From: an uncultured Bacilli bacterium
Lineage (GTDB): Bacteria > Bacillota_I > Bacilli_A > Izemoplasmatales > UBA1188
Direction of reading: 5' to 3'
Assembly: GCA_905235635.1 (NCBI GenBank)
Contig: CAJOMC010000001.1
Location: forward strand, 22,948 to 86,947
DNA length: 64,000 bases
Both the position numbers and the translations under genes were made by a program. Below the pieces are notes generated by a model that searched no databases, had not been told where the DNA came from, and worked only from the letters and a program-made list of their open reading frames with translations. Shown here piece by piece: positions 21,393 to 53,359 of this stretch. Each line of letters starts with the position of its first letter. The first letter of the stretch is position 1.

Positions 21393-21402
21393 TTTATTGA
21401 AG

Positions 21403-21428
21403 AAAAAACCTCTTAATGAGGTTTTTTT
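21403..21428 (+). terminator. Intrinsic terminator after yneF
   Basis: aaaaaacctc-ttaat-gaggttttttt. Confidence 0.8.
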
Positions 21429-21486
21429 CTTTTAATTATTGTGTTAAAATAATTATCGTAATTATATTATTTATATAGGTGATGAT

Positions 21487-23439
21487 ATGGCCAACAATTC
21501 ATATGATGCTTCGAGTATTCAAATACTTGAAGGATTAGAACCCGTTAGAAAAAGACCTGGTATGTATATAGGATCCACTGATTCTCGTGGATTACACCAA
21601 CTTGTTTGGGAAATTTTGGATAATGCTATTGATGAAGCATTATCTGGTTTTTGCAAAAACATTTTAATTACAATCAAACAAGATAATTCAGTAAAAATAG
21701 AAGATGATGGTCGTGGTCTTCCTGTTGGTAAACACCAAAATGGTGATGATGTACTAAATGTTATTTTTACTGTACTTCATGCTGGCGGTAAGTTTACAAA
21801 TGAAGGTGTCTATAAAGTATCTGGTGGTCTCCATGGTGTTGGAGCATCCGTTGTGAATGCGCTTTCTGATTGGCTTGAGATTACAAGTTATAAAGACGGA
21901 AAACAATATCATCAAAGATTCGAAAATGGTGGTTCTAGGTTTTCCAAACAAATAGAATATGTTGGACCAACAAGAAAACATGGCTCCGAAGTATGGTTTA
22001 AACCAGATCATACCATCTTTTCAACTACTCTATTTAACTATCAAACAATACTTGAAAGAGTTAGGTCTAGTGCCTATCTTATTAAAGACCTTCATATAAA
22101 ACTGGTAGATGAAAGATCGGGACAAAAGGATGAATTCTGTTTTGAAGATGGTATTAAAGCTTACTGCGAACATGAAACAGAGGGCAAAAATGTTTTAATT
22201 GAAAAACCAATCTATTTCTTCCAACAGGTTGAAGATACTCAAGTAGAGTTTGCGCTTAACTTTGCGAAAGATGCTTATAACGAATCAATTTCTTCATTTG
22301 TTAATAACGTTAGAACTAGGGATGGTGGTACCCATGAAGCTGGTTTTAAATCAGGTTTAACAAAGATTTTTAATGAGTTTGCTTATAAATCAATAGGTCA
22401 AAACAATCCTATATTAAAAGAGAAAGATGCACCTTTTGAGGGCGTAGATATAAGAGAAGGTTTATTTGCGATTCTCTCTATTCGTATGAAAGAACCTGAA
22501 TTTGAAGGACAAACAAAAGAAAGACTTGGTACTGCATATATCAAAACAATCGTTGAACAAGTAACTACTGATAAACTGCGTACTTTCTTTACAGAGAACC
22601 CTCTTATCGTCTACAACCTTTTAAAAAAGGCTCAATTCGCACGTGATGTGAGAGATAAGGCAAGAAAAGCAAGGGATGAAGCAAGAAACATCAAAACTAA
22701 AACTAAACAAGAACAATCTTTATCCGGAAAGCTTGCCCAAGCAGCAACCAAAAATAATAAAATAAATGAATTATTCTTAGTTGAGGGTGATTCTGCGGGT
22801 GGTAGTGCGAAACAAGGTCGTGATAGACGCTTCCAAGCGATTTTGCCTTTAAGAGGTAAGGTATTAAATACCGAAAAAGCATCTGCGAATGAAGTATTAT
22901 CAAACGAAGAACTACGTACAATGATTGCAACTATTGGTGCTGGATATGGACCATCTTTTGATGTTAAAAAGTCTAATTATAATAAGGTCATAATTATGAC
23001 CGATGCGGATGTCGATGGTTCACACATTCAAATCCTTTTACTTACATTCTTCTTTAGATATATGACTGATTTAATTAAAGAAGGAAAAGTATATATCGCT
23101 CTTCCTCCTCTATATAAAATCCAACAAGTAGGTGTTCAAAAACCTAAATTAATCTATGCTTATAGCGACCATGAAAGAGATGAAATAACCAAAGGATTTA
23201 AAAGATACACTATTCAAAGATATAAAGGTTTAGGTGAAATGAATGCGAGTCAACTCTGGGAAACCACCATGGACCCTAAAACCCGTACCTTAATTCAAGT
23301 TAAAATTGATGACTTTTTTGATGCGGATAATGCAGTATCCACATTAATGGGTGAAGATACCGAGCCTCGTAAAGCTTGGATAGAAAATAACGTTTCATTC
23401 GCTGAAATAGACGATTATAAGATTCAAGGTGGTGAATAA
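21487..23439 (+). CDS. parE: DNA topoisomerase IV subunit B
   Basis: [59 protein letters not shown]; paired with parC next to yneF as in Bacilli. Confidence 0.92.
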
Positions 23440-23440
23440 T

Positions 23441-26077
23441 ATGGCGAAGATTAAGGATTTAATAGATCAATTTGTCAATGAGAAAATACAGGTTGACTAC
23501 CTTGAAAAAATTATGGGTGATAGGTTTGGCGCCTACACAAAATATGTTGTCCAAGATAGAGCTATCCCAGATATTCGTGACGGTCTTAAGCCTGTTCAAA
23601 GAAGAATATTATACGCTATGCATATGGTAGGAATGAACTATGGTACACCATATAAAAAGAGCGCGAGAATAGTTGGCGAGGTTATTGGTAAATACCATCC
23701 TCATGGTGACCAATCTGTTTATGATGCTCTTGTTAGAATGAGTCAAGATTTTAAAATAAATGTTCCTTTAATAGATATGCACGGGAATAATGGTTCTATT
23801 GATGGAGATAGTGCTGCCGCAATGCGTTATACTGAAGCACGTCTTTCACCTGCCGCAATGTATCTTCTTGAGGACATAGATAAAAAGACAGTTCCATTTA
23901 TCCCAAACTATGATGATAGCGAAATAGAACCTGTCATCTTACCATCTAAATTTCCGAATCTTCTAATTAATGGTTCTGATGGTATTGCATCAGGTTATGC
24001 TACAAATATTCCACCATTTAATATGGCTGAAGTTATAAAATTAACTATTGAAAGAATTAAAAATCCATCTTTATCAATTGAAGATGCGATGGCAATAGTC
24101 CCAGCTCCAGATTTTCCTACTGGTGGTGAAATAGTTGAATCAGAATCTGAACTTGATAAGGTGTTTAAAACTGGAAAAGGTAAAGTAATTCTTAGATCTA
24201 AGACAAGAATTGAAGGGAATAATATTATTATTTCTGAAATACCTTATGGAGAAAAGAAATCTGATTTAGTAAAAAGTATTGATCTTCAAAGGGAAAGAAA
24301 AGAAGTTGAAGGAATTATAGAAGTAAGAGATGAGTCTGATAAAGATGGTCTCCGTATCGTGATAGAAACTAAGAGTGAGGCTAACACTGATGTTATCTTA
24401 AATTATCTTTTTAAGAAAACTCATCTTCAGGTTAATTTCCCAGTTAATATGGTCGCAATAGTTGATAGGCTTCCTAAACTTCTTGGTGTACTTGATGTAA
24501 TTGACCAATATATTATCCATGAGAAAGAAGTTATAACTAATAGATCTAACTTTGAAATGGATAAAGCAAAAAAGAGGCTCCATATTGTTGAAGGATACCA
24601 TAAACTATCATCAATTATTAATGAAGTTGTTGAAACAATTAAAAATTCAAAGAATAAGGCAAATGCAAAAGAGAATTTAGTAAATATATATGGCTTTACT
24701 GAACTTCAAGCTGAAGCTATAGTAACTCTCCAATTGTATAGATTAACTAATACTGATATTCAGGAATTTGAAATTGAAAAAGCTAATCTTCAAGCAGAAC
24801 TCGCTAAATTAAATAAGATTTTAACTAGTGAATTAGCCCTTAAGAATGTAATTATTAAGGAACTAGAAGGTATTAATGAAAAAATAGAATCAAAGAGACG
24901 TACTATAATTTCAAGCGTTAGTAGAGATTTATCGTTTAAGGAAGAAGAACTCTTAATACATGAAAACGTACATGTTATTATCACAAGAGACGGATATGTT
25001 AAAAAGTTATCTCTTAGAAGTTATCAGGCATCTTTAAACTCTCAACCAGGCCTTAAAGAGGGAGATTTTATCGCATTTGAGGATGAATGTAACACAATGG
25101 ATACAATAATCCTATTTACAAATAGCGGTGCATATATCAATCTTCCTGTTTATAAGATTCCAGATGCTAAATACAAGGATTTAGGCGAATATGTTGGTGG
25201 AATGTTTGACCTACGGGGAGATGAAAAAGTAATCAATATCTATCATTTTAGGGAAAATCCTAGTGATGATATGGAGATTGTTGTTTCAACAAGAATGTCT
25301 AAGATCAAAAGATTATCTGCGAAAGAAATTTTTGAAAAGAGATTTAAGAAAGGTAGCGTAATTTCTTTAACTGATGATGATAGCGTAGTATCTGTTTCGT
25401 TTACGTTTAAAGATTATAATGAAGTTGTGACAGTTACTAAATATGGACTTATTCTTAAATATCCTAAGAATGAAGTGCCTATCGTTGGTAAAAAGGCTCT
25501 AGGTGTAAGAAATGCTGCACTAAAACCTGGAGATGAAGTTATTAAATCATTCCTCGTTCCTAACTATGTAAAAGAAGAAATTATTCTTATAACTAGTAGG
25601 GGTGGACTAAAGCGAATTCTTCTTAAGAATCTCCAAAGGTCAAAAAGAGCTCAACGTGGTACGCCAACTCTTAAAACCGTTAAAACAAATCCATATCTTT
25701 ATATTGATGCGATTGTTACTAACCCATCTAGATATAAAGAATCAATTCAGATTGATTTAGTTAGCGATAAAGAAATTAAGAAATTTGATGGATTAAGCCT
25801 CCCTAAAGACTCATATGAGAATGGAGCCCCTGTATTTGCGGATAGTGAAAAACCACTTGGTATTTACCATCAAATAGTAAATCTTGATGACTATCTTAAA
25901 TTAACCAAGGATATGTCTAAAGAATTTGAAAAAACTATTGAAGAAAAGAAAGAACAGCACCCTAATTCTCTCCTTGATGAATTAGGAGATATAATCGAGC
26001 AACAGACTTCGATATTTGATTATATCGATGATATTGATTTAAAAGATGATGAGGAATTAAAGAAGGATCTATTCTAA
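23441..26077 (+). CDS. parC: DNA topoisomerase IV subunit A
   Basis: [40 protein letters not shown] (catalytic Tyr); SD-supported ATG at 23441. Confidence 0.92.
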
Positions 26078-26078
26078 G

Positions 26079-27104
26079 ATGTATGCGCTAGATAAAGTAG
26101 ATGATGTCGTTACACCACAAGGTATAGTAATTAAATATATCCATGTATATAAAAAAGCCGGTTTATCAGAAACTATATTTGATAATATCCACGCTGAAGA
26201 TAAGATTTATCACACTCTTTCTAAGAAAGACGATATTTACTATGCATATAAGATTCTTTTTAAAGATTCTCCATTAACTGATGCGAGACTAGAAACAATT
26301 ATCAATAAAAACGGAAACTGTGAACTCAAAAACCAAAATGAAATAATATTAAAAAACCTGATAGATTTCTTTAATAAACTAGATGATACAGATGGCAGGT
26401 TCCTCCCATACGCAAACTTTATCAACGATACCCTTCAATCTATATATTCAAATACTAAACTTAAGCCAAAGTTTAGAGATAAAAGAAATGATGAAACAAA
26501 GAGATCAAGAGAAACCCTCCAAGAGATTTGCGATAAATACAACGTATTAAAGAAAAGAGGAATGGTTGAATATGGCTATTTAAATACATCTTTCTTTATG
26601 GATATGCTTTCAAGTGAACCATTTACCTTTGGTACGATGGAAGTTGCTTTACTTATTTTATATATGCTTATAATTAATAGTGATTTAAGTGTTTTTAGAT
26701 ATGTTTCATTCTTTAAGATGCTATATGATAGAATAAATGTTTTTAATAATTCTATTAATAATGCGAAACTAATGTATGAAATAGGATATCCTAATTTATT
26801 TCCTATTCTTACTATTATTCTTGATATTGAATCTAAAGCTTTAGATGAGTTAAATAGTCTTTATAGTGCAAAAACATTTGATAATGAACTATCTAAAGCC
26901 AAAATAATTGAAACTATCATTTATTCTTTAAATAAACAATTTAAGAAGAGTGATATAAGGGAAGAAGCACCTAATATCTCTGACTCAACAATTGATAGAG
27001 TACTACAAAGACTGAGCCAAGAAGGCAAAATAATGGCTTTTGATAGTGGACGTAATGCATCATGGGTAAGAATAGATGACACCCATGATCATAAATATTT
27101 TTAA
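26079..27104 (+). CDS. Fic-like protein with degenerate active site and C-terminal winged helix
   Basis: EPFTFGTMEVAL occupies the HPFxxGNGRxxR position, followed by the typical hydrophobic helix and YVSF; C-terminal FKKSDIREEAPNISDSTIDRVLQRLSQEGKI...GRNASW HTH. Confidence 0.7.
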   Translation: MYALDKVDDVVTPQGIVIKYIHVYKKAGLSETIFDNIHAEDKIYHTLSKKDDIYYAYKILFKDSPLTDARLETIINKNGNCELKNQNEIILKNLIDFFNKLDDTDGRFLPYANFINDTLQSIYSNTKLKPKFRDKRNDETKRSRETLQEICDKYNVLKKRGMVEYGYLNTSFFMDMLSSEPFTFGTMEVALLILYMLIINSDLSVFRYVSFFKMLYDRINVFNNSINNAKLMYEIGYPNLFPILTIILDIESKALDELNSLYSAKTFDNELSKAKIIETIIYSLNKQFKKSDIREEAPNISDSTIDRVLQRLSQEGKIMAFDSGRNASWVRIDDTHDHKYF

Positions 27105-27118
27105 TAGGGGATTAACTT

Positions 27119-29221
27119 ATGATTCTTTCAAAAGATAGATGGAAAATAAAATATACGAATCCATATGATGATTCTGAAATAATTGATATTTTATATAAAC
27201 AAAAAGGAATTGATGACTACATCAATTACTTTAATCTATCTTTTAAAGATTTTGGCGATCCACTCCTCTTTAAAAATATGGATATTGTCTTAAAAAAGAT
27301 TAAGATGTCGATTAGAAATAATGAGAAAATCCTAATTTATGGTGATTATGACGTTGATGGAATTACCGCAACCGCAATAATGTATCGTTTCTTAAAAGAG
27401 AAAGGGGCTCAAGTATATTATATGGTCCCAAATAGATTCCAGACAGGATATGGTTTATCTGAGGATGCGGTTGAACAAATCATTAAGAATGGATATAACC
27501 TCGTTATCACAGTTGATAATGGCATAACATCTGTAGATGAAATCGATAAATTACTTAATAATAATATTCAGGTAATAGTCACAGATCATCATGAACCAAA
27601 AGAAGAACTTCCACACACAAACTATATAGTCCACTCTTATATCTTTAATGATTATCCATTCGTAAACTTTTGTGGTGCTGGAATTGCCTATAAAATTTGT
27701 GAGGCATGGGATAAAGACCTAGTAAGAAAATATATAGACCTTGCGATGCTTGGGACTATCGCAGATATGATGCCTTTAATAGGTGAAAATAAGGCTATCA
27801 TAAATGAGGGTTTAAAACAAATTAATAATAGTAATGTTAAAGGATTAAAAGAATTACTTAATACCTTAAATATTAATATACTTAATATAAAAGACATATC
27901 TTATAATATAGCTCCTAAACTTAACTCTTTAGGAAGAATTGGTGATGCAACCATCGCAATAGCCCTCCTTACAACCGATAATGAAGAAGAGATTAAAGAA
28001 TATATTAAAAATATTCTTGAGGCAGATAATTTAAGAAAGGAACTCACTATTCAAAACACAGAACTTGCCTATAAGATGATTAATCCAGATGATAGTGTCA
28101 ACCTAATTTATTCTCCTAATTTCTATGAAGGCGTCCTTGGAATTATCGCTCAAAAGATAATGAAGAAGACGGGTAAAATAACTGGTATCTTCAATGTTGA
28201 TTCAGAGAATAACGCAAGAGGTTCTTTCAGGACAGTAGGTGAATATAATATTTTATCTATGCTTGATAAAAATAAAGATCTTCTTGAAAAGTTTGGTGGG
28301 CATGAAAAAGCTTGCGGTGTCAATATGATGGCATCAAAGATAAAAGAACTTAAATCAAGGCTTGAAAATATGGTTAAAGGTGATATTCCATCAACAAATG
28401 AAGTTGAGGTATCACTATCTTTAAATCATTCTCTAATAAATATTGAATTCTTTAAAGAACTTCAAAAATATGAACTTGATGATACTACGTTCTTAATAGA
28501 AGATGTTGAAGTGATGGAATCAACACTCCTCGCTAATAAACACACAAGAATAAGGGCAAGGCTTAATACTGGTAAATATGTAACTATAGTTGTATTTAAT
28601 GACCCTGCGCTTAATTATAATCTCTCGTATGGTGATAAGGTAAACTTTATTGGAACATTAAATATTAATACTCACAATAATTTTACTTATTTCCAGATTA
28701 TCGCAACGGATTATGAGGTAAAAAGAATACAAATTATCGATTATAGATATAGAAAAGATTCAAAAGAAGCTGAGGTATATTTCAATAATACATCTGGCTT
28801 ACAAATTAAAGATAACTTTGATAATATATTAGATTTATCCTTAATTCTTAAGGAACAAACTCCAAATATTATCTATCTTATGCCTATTGAAGGAACATAT
28901 TATAAGTTATCTGATAGGCGAAAACTAAAAGAAGCAATCTTTATAATTTCAAAAAATGTATCAATTTCTGAAATGATACTCCAAAAGGAATTAAGAATTA
29001 CTAGAAATACTTTAAATACTATACTAGATATCTTTACAGAATTAAATTTAATCACAAGAGAAAATGGCACTGTTAAGATTGTCGCATATTCTAAAGGCTA
29101 TAAGGTTGATCTTGAAAACAGTGAAACCTTTAGTAGATATATAGAAAAAGAAGAACTATATAATATTCTTCTTGGACCAATAGAATCGGTCAAAAAATTT
29201 GTAAATGAGTCACTTGAATAG
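27119..29221 (+). CDS. recJ: ssDNA 5'-3' exonuclease RecJ
   Basis: GDYDVDG, PNRF..GYG, TVDNG, TDHH, GTIADMM, GSFR, FGGH..ACG. Confidence 0.95.
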   Translation: MILSKDRWKIKYTNPYDDSEIIDILYKQKGIDDYINYFNLSFKDFGDPLLFKNMDIVLKKIKMSIRNNEKILIYGDYDVDGITATAIMYRFLKEKGAQVYYMVPNRFQTGYGLSEDAVEQIIKNGYNLVITVDNGITSVDEIDKLLNNNIQVIVTDHHEPKEELPHTNYIVHSYIFNDYPFVNFCGAGIAYKICEAWDKDLVRKYIDLAMLGTIADMMPLIGENKAIINEGLKQINNSNVKGLKELLNTLNINILNIKDISYNIAPKLNSLGRIGDATIAIALLTTDNEEEIKEYIKNILEADNLRKELTIQNTELAYKMINPDDSVNLIYSPNFYEGVLGIIAQKIMKKTGKITGIFNVDSENNARGSFRTVGEYNILSMLDKNKDLLEKFGGHEKACGVNMMASKIKELKSRLENMVKGDIPSTNEVEVSLSLNHSLINIEFFKELQKYELDDTTFLIEDVEVMESTLLANKHTRIRARLNTGKYVTIVVFNDPALNYNLSYGDKVNFIGTLNINTHNNFTYFQIIATDYEVKRIQIIDYRYRKDSKEAEVYFNNTSGLQIKDNFDNILDLSLILKEQTPNIIYLMPIEGTYYKLSDRRKLKEAIFIISKNVSISEMILQKELRITRNTLNTILDIFTELNLITRENGTVKIVAYSKGYKVDLENSETFSRYIEKEELYNILLGPIESVKKFVNESLE

Positions 29222-29232
29222 GAGAAAATGAT

Positions 29233-29745
29233 ATGAAACTTAATGAATATATAAAAAATGTACCTAATTTCCCAAAAGATGGAATTCAATTTAAAGACAT
29301 CACCCCACTTCTTGAAGATGGAGATGCCTTTAGAGAAGCTATTGATGAATTAACTACTTGGGCCTCATCTTTAGGTGCGACAAAAGTTGTTGGGCCAGAT
29401 GCGAGAGGTTTTATTTTAGGATGTCCTGTCGCATATGCGCTTAAAACTGGTTTTGTACCAGTAAGAAAACCTGGTAAACTACCAAGAGAAACCATTAGTC
29501 AATCATATGAATTAGAATATGGTTCTAATACTTTGTGTATGCATAAAGACGCTCTTAAAAAAGGTGATAAGGTTGTAATAATCGATGATCTCCTTGCAAC
29601 AGGTGGAACAGTTGTTGCCGCAATCAATCTCTGCGAAAAGCTTGGCGCAGAAGTAATGGGTGTTGGTGTACTCATTGAACTTAGTGAATTAAAAGGAAGA
29701 GAATTCATAGGAAACTATAATATTAAATCTCTAATAAGTTATTAA
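29233..29745 (+). CDS. apt: Adenine phosphoribosyltransferase
   Basis: FKDIT, DARGF, RKPGKLP, LEYG, IIDDLLATGGT. Confidence 0.97.
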   Translation: MKLNEYIKNVPNFPKDGIQFKDITPLLEDGDAFREAIDELTTWASSLGATKVVGPDARGFILGCPVAYALKTGFVPVRKPGKLPRETISQSYELEYGSNTLCMHKDALKKGDKVVIIDDLLATGGTVVAAINLCEKLGAEVMGVGVLIELSELKGREFIGNYNIKSLISY

Positions 29746-29746
29746 G

Positions 29747-31933
29747 ATGGATGCATTATTTTTAACCCTATATGATAAATTTAAAGGGTATATCACAAAT
29801 GAGGATACAAGGCATAGGATAGAAAAGGCCTATATTTTTGCACGTGATGCTCATAAGGGTCAAACCAGAGCATCAGGTGAAGAATATATTATTCATCCTG
29901 TCGCTGTCGCAAAAACATTATGTGATTATTATGCTGATCCAGAAACTATCGAAGCTGCACTTTTACATGATGTAATAGAAGATACTGATAAAACTTTTGA
30001 AGATATTAGAAAGAATTTTTCTATTGGAGTTGCAAATCTTGTAGAAGGATTAACCAAGATTGAAAAGCATCAATATACAGATGAGTTAAACAAGGGAATG
30101 GCTAATTTTGAGGAATTCGCAAACAATTATCAAAAGATGTTATTCTCTATGAGTAAAGATATAAGAATTATTTGGATAAAATTATCTGATAGGTTAAATA
30201 ATATGCAAACGCTTGATTATTTGCCTATAGAAAAACAGGCAAGAATTGCAAATGAAACAATTAAGGTTTATGCACCAATTGCGCATAAACTAGGTATGAA
30301 TAGAATAAAAGCAGAGCTTGAAGATTTATCCTTTAAATATCTTTATCCTGATGAGTATGAAGACTTAGCAAAAAAACTCCAACAGACTAAGAAACAAAGA
30401 GAAAAAGATATTGAAAAGATGATTTCTAATTTAAGAAATATGATGGAATCTGAAGGCGTCAAATGTGAAATATCAGGAAGAGTTAAGAATTTATGGTCTA
30501 TAAGAAACAAAATAATAACTAAAGGAACATCTTTTGAAAATATTTATGACCTTCAAGCATTAAGAATAATAGTTGATACAGTAATGGATTGTTATAAAGC
30601 GATTGGTATAGTCCATTCTAAATACACTCCTCTACCAAAGCGTATAAAGGATTATATCGCTATGCCTAAACCAAATATGTATCAATCTCTTCACACAACT
30701 ATAGTATCTGATGGACGTCCCTATGAAATTCAAATTAGAACCCATGAAATGGATGAAATAGCTGAGGTTGGTATCGCAGCTCACTGGGCATATAAAGAAG
30801 GTATTAAACAGAATAAGAATTTTTATATAGAAACTGCATCTAAACTTAGATGGTATAGTGATCTCCAAAAGTTTACCGATAAACATTCAGATAATACTAA
30901 GGATGAGGTTACAACTTTATTTGATGAAGATGTATTAAACGCAAATGTATATGTATTCACTCCAAAGAATACAGTAATCTCATTGCCAGAAGGTTCAACT
31001 CCAATTGATTTCGCTTATAGAATTCACTCAAAAATAGGTGATAAATTCGTAGGTGCGATAGTAAACGGTAAAATTGTCCCAATGAGCTATGAGTTAAAGA
31101 CTGGTGATATCTGTGAAATTAAGACTTCTCAATCATCAATTGGCCCTAATGAAAACTGGCTAAAAATAGCGAAAACTGCATCCGCAAGGGGTAAAATTAA
31201 ACAATTCTTGAATAAGAAGAATCATGATTTACTATTTGAGGAAGGGCGCTCTCTTTTAAAAGAGGAATTAAAGGCACAAAAATGTGATATAAATATCACA
31301 GATGATTTAGTAAAAGAAAAATTCATTAAAGATAAAGGGATTAATAATCTTGAGGATTTATATATCGCAATCGCAAAGAAAGTTGTTTCAGCTCAAGCTT
31401 TTGTCCAAGCTATTAAAACTGATAACTTATCTGAAGATGAAAAACTAATTGCCCTTATAAACACAAGAAATAAGAATCAAATATATCATGATGATATTGA
31501 TATTATCGTCGAAGGATTAACTACTCCAAGTGTAAAACTATCTAAATGTTGCGAGCCAATCCCAGGTGATGAAATAATCGGTTTTGTCACAAAAGGTGTC
31601 GGTATCGCGGTACATAGAAAGAATTGTAAGAACTGTAAAGCATTTGATGAGAATAGGTTAATCAATGTTTATTGGGCTAAATCCGGTGATAAACGTTTCC
31701 CAGTAGGACTAAAGATTAATGTATTTAATAGAGATAACATTCTTGCGGATATTCTAAATACCGCAATCACATGCAATGCTAAAGTTGATAAAGTGAGCGC
31801 AAGAATTACTAATAGAGAAGAAGGCTTAATCACATTAACTATTGGCGTATATAATAAAGAGAATTTGGATGTACTCATATCTAATTTAGAAAAAATTAAA
31901 GGGGTATATCAAATTATTAGGGCATCTAGATAA
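29747..31933 (+). CDS. rel: Bifunctional (p)ppGpp synthetase/hydrolase Rel
   Basis: H.GQ.R.SGE.YI.HP, LHDVIEDT, KDYIAMPKPNMYQSLHT, EIQIRT, TGS (TPIDFAYRIH), ACT domain. Confidence 0.97.
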   Translation: MDALFLTLYDKFKGYITNEDTRHRIEKAYIFARDAHKGQTRASGEEYIIHPVAVAKTLCDYYADPETIEAALLHDVIEDTDKTFEDIRKNFSIGVANLVEGLTKIEKHQYTDELNKGMANFEEFANNYQKMLFSMSKDIRIIWIKLSDRLNNMQTLDYLPIEKQARIANETIKVYAPIAHKLGMNRIKAELEDLSFKYLYPDEYEDLAKKLQQTKKQREKDIEKMISNLRNMMESEGVKCEISGRVKNLWSIRNKIITKGTSFENIYDLQALRIIVDTVMDCYKAIGIVHSKYTPLPKRIKDYIAMPKPNMYQSLHTTIVSDGRPYEIQIRTHEMDEIAEVGIAAHWAYKEGIKQNKNFYIETASKLRWYSDLQKFTDKHSDNTKDEVTTLFDEDVLNANVYVFTPKNTVISLPEGSTPIDFAYRIHSKIGDKFVGAIVNGKIVPMSYELKTGDICEIKTSQSSIGPNENWLKIAKTASARGKIKQFLNKKNHDLLFEEGRSLLKEELKAQKCDINITDDLVKEKFIKDKGINNLEDLYIAIAKKVVSAQAFVQAIKTDNLSEDEKLIALINTRNKNQIYHDDIDIIVEGLTTPSVKLSKCCEPIPGDEIIGFVTKGVGIAVHRKNCKNCKAFDENRLINVYWAKSGDKRFPVGLKINVFNRDNILADILNTAITCNAKVDKVSARITNREEGLITLTIGVYNKENLDVLISNLEKIKGVYQIIRASR

Positions 31934-32367
31934 TGAGACTACTTATCGAAAGAGTTAAAAAGGCAAATTGTATTATAGATGGCATCTCTCATTCATCAAT
32001 TGATGAAGGTCTTTTAGTTTATGTTGCATTTACATCTTTAGATAATAAAGAATTAATAGATAAGGCAGTATCTAAGCTTATAAAACTTAGAATATTCAGT
32101 GATTCAAATGATAAAATGAACCTCTCAGTTAAAGATGTTAATGGAATGATATTAGTCATTAGTTCATTCTCTTTATATGGTGATACTAAAGGAAATAATA
32201 GACCATCTTTTACGAAGTCACTCTCATATAATGATGCATTACCATTATATAATTATTTTATTAGTAAGCTTGAAAATGAGGTTATCGCCAAAACTGGCGT
32301 TTTTGGGGCAGATATGAAAATAGAGGCCATAAATGATGGCCCTGTATCCATTATTATGGATTTATAA
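31933..32367 (+). CDS. dtd: D-aminoacyl-tRNA deacylase
   Basis: KLRIF.D...MN.S, GNNRPSF, TG.FGADM, NDGP. Confidence 0.95.
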   Translation: MRLLIERVKKANCIIDGISHSSIDEGLLVYVAFTSLDNKELIDKAVSKLIKLRIFSDSNDKMNLSVKDVNGMILVISSFSLYGDTKGNNRPSFTKSLSYNDALPLYNYFISKLENEVIAKTGVFGADMKIEAINDGPVSIIMDL

Positions 32368-53331: not shown

Positions 53332-53359
53332 AGTTAACATAATATACATTATAGGAAGT
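53332..53359 (-). other. Chromosomal dif site (XerCD/CodV-RipX recombination site)
   Basis: Minus strand reads ACTTCCTATAA-TGTATA-TTATGTTAACT. As recalled, B. subtilis dif is ACTTCCTAGAA-TATATA-TTATGTAAACT (3 differences) and the E. coli dif centre is TGTATA. Intergenic, single copy in the window. Confidence 0.9.

Follow-up and report, generated by a model that had tools for sequence, protein, structure and literature searches.

The gene at positions 26079 to 27104 (plus strand) of the DNA analysed here belongs to what is, judged from sequence, a Fido-fold pseudoenzyme family, whose members keep the architecture of a Fic protein and have lost its catalytic motif. The stretch, which we call the window, comprises 64,000 nucleotides of contig CAJOMC010000001.1 (positions 22,948 to 86,947, assembly GCA_905235635.1) from an uncultured Bacilli bacterium of the Izemoplasmatales, and X is our shorthand for the pseudo-Fic gene and its protein. 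X lies directly behind the genes of topoisomerase IV (Topo IV), parE and parC, and is part of one ancient, vertically inherited, single-copy housekeeping clade. We tentatively propose, from sequence, structural model and analogy, that X is a non-catalytic, DNA-binding and probably dimeric pseudo-Fic that is made together with Topo IV and may help to target or modulate this enzyme, or to unlink or segregate chromosomes. The features of X itself are the following.

26079..27104, plus strand: X, pseudo-Fic gene, 341 aa, with a Fic_N-like domain, a degenerate Fic core and a winged helix (open reading frame (ORF) list, AlphaFold2 (AF2), Foldseek, hhalign)
26079..26393, plus strand: N-terminal Fic_N/DUF4172-like domain, residues 1-105 (hhalign columns)
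26448..26501, plus strand: remnant of the target-docking flap, approximately residues 124-141 (hhalign gap against canonical GGxWK..N.I..(G)..F.P)
26616..26651, plus strand: degenerate Fic signature EPFTFGTMEVAL where the canonical one is HPFxDGNGRxxR, residues 180-191 (HMMER, hhalign)
26889..27101, plus strand: C-terminal winged helix-turn-helix (wHTH), residues 271-341 (DSSP on the AF2 model; conservation profile)

Pfam and NCBIfam assign X to no family. There are only sub-threshold wHTH matches at residues 290-339 (FUR, DUF7343 and TBPIP), and the Pfam Fic family (PF02661) does not match X even at E <= 1. A search of PDB sequences with X leads to 8uqu, a 'Fido domain-containing protein' of Bordetella bronchiseptica (phmmer with the single sequence, E 1.9e-5), and a profile of four X sequences finds the same entry at E 3.7e-13. 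When the X family is aligned by hhalign with 11 canonical Fic-wHTH proteins, a paralogue from the same genome included, the match runs end to end over 341 columns (probability 100, E 1.3e-43), while the identity of X to class II Fic-wHTH proteins is about 10-18%. The AF2 model, built on a 72-sequence family alignment, has an all-helical Fido core, a predicted local distance difference test score (pLDDT) of 93 and a predicted template-modelling score (pTM) of 0.84. Its best 50 Foldseek matches in the PDB are without exception Fic proteins, at probability 1.00. The top ones are wHTH-bearing class II proteins (4rgl, 8uqu, 8cil, 3eqx/3zcn, 7xux, 7cb8), a type matched at E 2e-7 to 6e-5 with a template-modelling score of up to 0.87 on the target, and 3cuc is also among the 50. 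The Fic fold that a first-pass annotation had read from the letters of the window is thereby borne out. On sequence and model X is best described as related over its full length to the class II (SoFic-type) Fic proteins: a Fic_N domain is followed by a Fic core and, at the C-terminus, by a winged helix.

Within the N-terminal domain Y24, G28 and E88 are conserved. The helix after the degenerate loop (residues 186-199) is kept in the AF2 model and so is the C-terminal winged helix, both as first proposed. The latter comprises H273-283, E287-289, H290-296, H302-314, E318-320 and E328-331, an H-S-H-H-S-W-S topology over residues 273-331 that aligns with the wHTH of the canonical relatives. The fold relationship is already present in the automatic labels of UniProt, where the Acholeplasma laidlawii and Paracholeplasma brassicae members are called 'Fic family' or 'Fido domain-containing'; NCBI labels members of the family 'hypothetical protein' and, once, 'helix-turn-helix domain-containing protein'. 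We found no publication on X in the literature on a parC-linked pseudo-Fic, on Acholeplasma, on Izemoplasma or on UniProt A9NF74, and the main text of the A. laidlawii ciprofloxacin-resistance papers does not mention the gene. Only the function and the parC linkage are therefore undescribed. For these two the earlier suggestion of an undescribed system stands, for the fold relationship it does not, and X is one gene and not a multi-gene system.

The machinery of AMP transfer is gone. EPFTFGTMEVAL aligns opposite HPFPDGNGRMSR of 8uqu and opposite HPFIDGNGRMSR in the canonical Fic that this genome also encodes (HMMER, hhalign), which agrees with the loss of the catalytic His and the anion nest at 26616-26651 that the first-pass annotation had noticed. 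The substitutions in the loop are H>E, D>F, N>T, G>M, R>E and R>L, and the catalytic signature HxFx(D/E)GN(G/K)RxxR is absent. The family consensus at the motif is xPFxxxNxxxxL. When the motif is aligned across 118 homologues, every X member proves to have lost the His, the two Arg and the Gly-rich anion nest, and the catalytic His occurs in none of the 103 clade members. The former catalytic loop is among the more variable positions of the family. The inhibitory motif (S/T)xxxE(G/N) is also missing: X reads YKILFKDS at this place, with a 2-residue deletion and no Glu, though the Fic_N domain aligns. The class II beta-hairpin flap is lacking as well. Compared to canonical GGxWK..N.I, 17 residues are deleted in the window's X and about 8 in the family consensus, and the remnant is the least conserved stretch of the protein. 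By every criterion that can be put to a sequence X is catalytically dead, and the sequence predicts no AMPylation of GyrB or ParE. X resembles the class II Fic-wHTH proteins and descends from them, but lacks three features that define them, namely motif, inhibitory helix and flap; to class it with the Fic enzymes, the FicT toxins or the SoFic defence genes would therefore be wrong.

It could be argued that X is still an enzyme that performs a new chemistry in a remodelled pocket. A few family-specific conserved polar residues (E164, K273, K290) and the strong constraint on the Fic core speak for this. However, to our knowledge every known Fic-fold activity (Fic, Doc, AnkX, AvrAC) depends on the motif His, which is gone from every X member together with both Arg and the anion nest, and we regard a new chemistry as highly improbable. 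Fic-wHTH proteins with partly degenerate motifs, such as SPFEYGNERIAR and WPFQEDNVKMAK, also occur outside the X clade (P0095, P0106, P0116, P0119, P0125, P0126, P0132, P0134, P0140, P0147, P0148 and P0150); the last Arg is usually kept in these proteins. From such sequences the Fic signature seems to have been lost repeatedly.

The distribution of X rests on exhaustive HMMER and genome searches; a word-indexed homologue search yields only 4-7 relatives. The exhaustive HMMER search gave 311 cluster representatives. None of the best approximately 88 matches listed carries a canonical motif, and intact HPFxDGNGRxxR proteins come in only at E > 1e-14, aligning from about residue 145 on. In a tree of 128 sequences, calculated with FastTree only, the X family forms one clade of 103 representatives with a Shimodaira-Hasegawa (SH)-like support of 100 and no canonical member inside. 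Whole-genome searches find a full-length intact X in 39 of 41 genomes and in 19 of 19 genera of the window's order. In a class-level sample of 300 genomes about 115-120 contain X at 247 bits or above and all other matches, which are canonical paralogues, stay at or below 166 bits, a bimodal distribution of scores. Orthologues of at least 247 bits come from families f1 to f3, f5, f7, f12, f15, f19, f20 and f28. Matches of 150 bits in f6, f10 and f23 were considered as divergent X and rejected; they are canonical HPFNDGNGRMSR Fic proteins in unrelated contexts, one of them beside type I restriction-modification-like genes. A phylum-level sample contains X in 62 of 299 genomes, all from families already found in the class sample. 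Exact-sequence look-up identified as members proteins of Ca. Izimaplasma HR1, Hujiaoplasma nucleasis, A. laidlawii (ABX81004.1), P. brassicae and several 'Mycoplasmatota bacterium' isolates, and the range of X comprises the Izemoplasmatales, the Acholeplasmatales and allied Mycoplasmatota. In the class-sample genomes X was not found in the Mycoplasmatales-type, TGA-recoding, strongly reduced lineages, which have parC.

X is under strong constraint. Compared to an 84%-identical relative the ratio of nonsynonymous to synonymous substitution rates (dN/dS) is about 0.05, with saturated dS, and the proportion of nonsynonymous differences (pN) is 0.057 in the N-terminal domain, 0.142 in the Fic core and 0.071 in the wHTH. 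Such purifying selection means that X is functional and not a decaying enzyme. The term domesticated pseudo-Fic, used in the first reading of the locus, fits a vertically inherited core gene of this kind well.

The second line of evidence is the position of the gene. The other features of the locus and the window are as follows.

21442..21450, plus strand: putative extended -10 promoter element TGtTAAAAT for the parE operon (read from the sequence, just past the yneF terminator)
21487..23439, plus strand: parE, Topo IV subunit B, 650 aa (NCBIfam, Pfam and pairing with parC)
23429..26077, plus strand: parC, Topo IV subunit A, 882 aa (TIGR01061 parC_Gpos, 868 bits, above the cut-off; overlaps parE)
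27119..29221, plus strand: recJ, start of a recJ-apt-relA block (Pfam DHH, DHHA1, RecJ_OB, ssDNA-exonuc_C)
53332..53357, minus strand: dif-like site TTCCTATAATGTATATTATGTTAACT (1 mismatch to the degenerate Firmicute dif pattern, 0.03 expected by chance)

In 76 of 88 genomes, namely 37 of 39 from the order and 39 of 49 from other families, X comes after parC and has the same orientation; the two remaining genomes of the order are split by contig ends. X has thus remained near parC in the majority of free-living bacteria without a cell wall. The proposed synteny of parE, parC and the pseudo-Fic gene is therefore found across relatives, and the motif is lost throughout the clade. X directly adjoins parC in f1 and f2. 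In f12, f7 and part of f5 it is likewise adjacent or lies within 1 kb. In f3 one lipoprotein-like gene of 412-432 aa stands between parC and X (L038:3340-4638 on the minus strand, L039:5339-6577 and L040:3411-4697); the L038 copy, the only one tested, has a GLUG motif. In f15 and f20 a single PRK/uridine-kinase-family gene of 551-556 aa separates the two. In f28 X is 4-6 kb from parC in three genomes and unlinked in the other two, and in f19 it is unlinked in all eight, at 15-37 kb on the opposite strand in seven and on a different contig in one. The 3' neighbour of X changes with the lineage. It is recJ in the window, which is the case in the window's genus only, nadC in most Izemoplasmatales, a PHP phosphoesterase gene in f5, f12 and f19, a major facilitator superfamily gene in f7, degV in A. 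laidlawii and an asparaginase gene in P. brassicae. Because the arrangement plsY<-parE-parC-X is kept in 76 of 88 genomes while the 3' neighbour varies, it is probably the ancestral order.

The linkage may also be inherited gene order without functional meaning. In this case X would serve a housekeeping function that has nothing to do with Topo IV, possibly in partnership with the PHP phosphoesterase or the PRK-like kinase, and these secondary partnerships do persist where parC is no longer a neighbour. X is beside the PHP gene in f5, f12, f19 and the P0004 lineage; in f7 the PHP gene comes one gene later. Family f19 keeps the X-PHP pair though parC is 15-37 kb away. In f28, L020, L021 and L027 the PRK-X pair is intact although parC is not next to it, and insertions between parC and X are tolerated. 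On the other hand, at least nine families have kept the parC-X order at 25-30% identity, although the gene on the 3' side of X has changed repeatedly, and in the order to which the window belongs X has no PHP or PRK gene beside it. We consider a merely historical linkage quite unlikely.

The two recurrent neighbours are of some interest in themselves. The PHP-domain, HisJ-like phosphoesterase (260-275 aa) follows X in several families including f19, often with overlapping stop and start codons (L004:9022-9804, L048:991-1773, L049:4014-4835, L050:4114-4935, L024:7022-7810, L031:7022-7816 and L035:6851-7678); it is not at the X-flanking position in the window's genus. The PRK/uridine-kinase-family protein (548-556 aa), whose N-terminal half, about 290 aa long, is uncharacterised, is encoded directly upstream of X in Acholeplasmataceae and allied families (L044:3140-4807, L046:3431-5095, L051:5401-7071, L055:3806-5470 and L056:3818-5464). 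Two complete genomes have transposase-like ORFs between parC and X or the PRK-X pair (L047:3229-4062 and L052:3554-4720, both on the minus strand), hence the operon tolerates interruption.

In the window the gene is called parE because it is paired with parC and a separate gyrA lies elsewhere in the genome. Its best NCBIfam match, TIGR01058 parE_Gpos, stays at 847 bits below the curated cut-off of 899.95, and the gene clears NF004189, the DNA gyrase subunit B subfamily (840 bits, cut-off 740); the Pfam matches are HATPase_c, DNA_gyraseB, Toprim and DNA_gyraseB_C. The TAA stop codon of parC occupies 26075-26077, a single G follows at 26078 and the ATG of X is at 26079 (ORF list and raw sequence), so the 1-nt distance given at first is correct. 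However, every junction from parE to relA is an overlap or a gap of 1-14 nt (X-recJ 14 nt, recJ-apt 11 nt, apt-relA 1 nt), and hence the junction of parC and X is not special. Over 21487-32300 parE, parC, X, recJ, apt, relA and probably the next gene follow each other with junctions of -11 to +14 nt. On the plus strand terminator-like sites were found at 21402-21428 (after yneF), 21616-21647, 32286 and 32608, and there is none between the start of parE (21487) and 32286 except the weak match at 21616-21647 inside parE. Because of the tiny junctions and the near-absence of internal terminators X is placed inside a long, tightly packed parE-to-relA stretch, which looks, from sequence, like one unusually long housekeeping transcription unit. 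The putative promoter element at 21442-21450 has counterparts, TGcTACAAT / TGCTATAAT, at a similar position in the relatives L001, L004, L024, L025 and L036. For A. laidlawii, contigs from RNA runs, one of them from a declared metatranscriptome, run unbroken across parC, PRK and X. This is consistent with transcription but not decisive, contigs being weak evidence of co-transcription. The window's own sequence was found in no RNA run and is present in the source metagenome only.

ParC itself has an acidic C-terminal tail of about 125 aa beyond residue 754, where the TIGR01061 model stops. This tail (window 25700-26074, residues approximately 755-882) lies past the beta-pinwheel and is probably disordered. 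In genome G270 ParC (L054:1154-4453) has 1099 aa and a corresponding acidic tail of about 270 aa; a ParC-X fusion was considered here and rejected, since the extra length is acidic low-complexity tail only. A long or acidic tail was also rejected as a marker of X, as ParC has 802-913 aa in genomes without X and 822-940 aa in those with it.

The dif-like site is 26.2 kb downstream of X, and the cumulative GC skew peaks at about 54-56 kb, at this site; the window therefore spans the replication terminus. The distance of about 26 kb between locus and dif noted at first is correct for the window, yet it seems to be no conserved feature: in complete genomes the distance looks variable, from about 10 kb to more than 300 kb (rough values, based on gyrA-derived guesses of the origin), and closeness to dif may in some genomes follow the parEC locus. 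Proximity to dif is therefore not treated as a property of X. A convergent pair of genes for a phosphopentomutase-like metalloenzyme and a tyrosine recombinase (Phage_integrase, XerC/D-like) recurs 3-6 kb past X on the opposite strand (L004:15484-17035, L020, L021, L025, L027, L029, L035 and L036), and may be another terminus-related neighbour.

The best conserved segment of the X family is the wHTH, with the SDSTI.R.L recognition helix and the GRSAKW wing. Residues S301, T304, R307, G324, R325 and W329 are invariant, the median net charge of the domain is +5 and the median isoelectric point (pI) of the family is 8.0. The three-domain architecture is common to X and SoFic (Shewanella oneidensis SO_4266, 3eqx/3zcn), the B. 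bronchiseptica Fic (8uqu), CbFic2 (Coxiella burnetii, 8cil), Dde_2494 (4rgl) and Yersinia CccR, and the wing motif GxGRxAxW is shared with class II Fic-wHTH proteins. CbFic2 binds DNA via its C-terminal wHTH and dimerises on DNA, and a conserved N-terminal helix is used for dimerisation in SoFic and CbFic2 (PMC10628234). Unlike these proteins X has no catalytic His, Asp/Glu, GNG, both Arg or SxxxEG, and its flap is 8-17 residues shorter. Nor is X a mobile, defence or effector gene; it belongs to the vertically inherited core of the genome and is tied to parEC.

The same features could make X a plain winged-helix transcription factor, that is, a CccR-like Fic-wHTH repressor minus the toxin activity, which controls parE-parC or other genes and whose place in the operon reflects autoregulation. 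CccR has the architecture of X and represses its own promoter (PMC10628234). The recognition helix and the wing are the most conserved parts of X, and its family is single-copy and housekeeping. Upstream of parE, however, 11 loci from several families share no palindrome or operator, a comparison of low power, and show promoter elements only. The N-terminal domain and the Fic core are also strongly constrained, beyond what a DNA-binding domain needs, and regulators seldom sit at the distal end of long housekeeping operons. A transcription factor of this kind is plausible, but we think it unlikely.

A connection of Fic proteins with Topo IV is known from enzymes. Fic enzymes of class I and class II AMPylate ParE/GrlB at Tyr109, which leads to the par phenotype, and Fic-2 and Sa1560 are class II proteins (PMC7479194). 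FicT/FicA and related toxins such as Fic-1 and Fic-2 of P. fluorescens, FicY of Yersinia and Sa1560 of S. aureus thus share with X the Fic fold and a connection to Topo IV. They are, however, active, have an intact motif and usually form toxin-antitoxin pairs; X has no motif and its connection is known from gene linkage only. No antitoxin-sized ORF is present at the junctions of X (1 nt to parC, 14 nt to recJ).

The first-pass annotation had also offered a decoy against Fic toxins, and X could indeed be imagined as an immunity factor against toxins of the FicT or SoFic type, occupying the docking site on ParE/GyrB or titrating the toxin. Fic toxins do target ParE/GrlB at Tyr109 (PMC7479194), and the same genome has an active SoFic-type gene. 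Its product is a class II Fic with no such losses, which has 352 aa and contains HPFIDGNGRMSR, the inhibitory motif SNEIEG and a wHTH (G000 contig C2:107720-108277 region; locus L041:2218-3276 on the minus strand), and matches the PADLOC SoFic model (PDLC03963) at 8.7e-42. X and its A. laidlawii orthologue have no PADLOC match, X and the active gene are not neighbours but stand on separate contigs, and the flap by which X could dock a target is truncated. Moreover, X is a universal, single-copy and slowly evolving core gene, unlike defence or immunity genes. A decoy is therefore very unlikely.

A FIC domain with a non-canonical motif that works by binding and not by catalysis has been described: a preprint on Bartonella BepC (bioRxiv 10.1101/2020.04.17.046482) reports recruitment of GEF-H1. 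BepC differs from X, as it is a secreted, host-targeting effector with a BID domain that has kept most of the motif and is unrelated to DNA or Topo IV. Lineage-specific partners and modulators of Topo IV are MukB, YejK, SeqA and FtsK in E. coli and GapR and NstA in Caulobacter. They have no relationship to X in sequence or fold. The likeness lies in the proposed role only, a non-essential, clade-restricted targeting or tuning of Topo IV, which for X is read from operon linkage.

Taken together, the conserved basic wHTH, the examples of CbFic2 and CccR and the AMPylation of ParE/GrlB by Fic enzymes lead us to read X, tentatively, as a DNA-binding pseudo-Fic made with Topo IV. X would work without catalysis and use the dead Fic core as a scaffold. 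It would most likely bind DNA via the highly conserved, basic winged helix and probably dimerise via the conserved N-terminal helix, as SoFic and CbFic2 do. Produced together with Topo IV, it would most likely be an accessory or regulatory factor for the enzyme or for the unlinking and segregation of chromosomes; it might, for instance, recruit Topo IV to DNA or modulate it there.

Several observations weigh against this proposal. The partnership of X with ParC and ParE is drawn from genomic linkage only (76 of 88 genomes), and this linkage is broken in 8 of 8 f19 and 2 of 5 f28 genomes, with genes inserted between parC and X in f3, f15, f20 and f28. The plsY-parE-parC order is itself very stable, so that inertia contributes to the parC-X linkage, which may be historical. 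Lineages without X retain Topo IV and thus X is not generally required; nor do length and tail of ParC differ between lineages with and without X. The flap by which active Fic enzymes dock their targets is truncated in X, and a ParE-docking mode inherited from the enzyme ancestor is therefore doubtful. Finally, the window's own X is acidic (pI 6.0) and its wHTH has a net charge of only +1, compared to the family medians of 8.0 and +5. A bolder version of the proposal is that X represents a new class of Fic-derived pseudoenzyme, a dedicated DNA-bound Topo IV cofactor in the cell-wall-less relatives of Bacillota (Izemoplasmatales, Acholeplasmatales). Its ancestor would be a class II Fic by which ParE was formerly regulated through AMPylation, and X would now tether or tune Topo IV non-catalytically in chromosome unlinking. 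In this form we hold it to be rather unlikely.

Fic proteins have been studied almost solely as enzymes, that is as toxins, effectors and defence proteins. The X lineage would be a clear bacterial Fic pseudoenzyme, one that has lost catalysis and is nevertheless near-universal and strongly constrained across several orders. Annotation pipelines, which at present write 'hypothetical protein' for this family, can now name it. The place of X behind parE-parC leads to a concrete hypothesis on how Topo IV may be targeted or regulated in bacteria without MukB-type partners, and since A. laidlawii is culturable and carries ABX81004.1, this hypothesis is directly testable.

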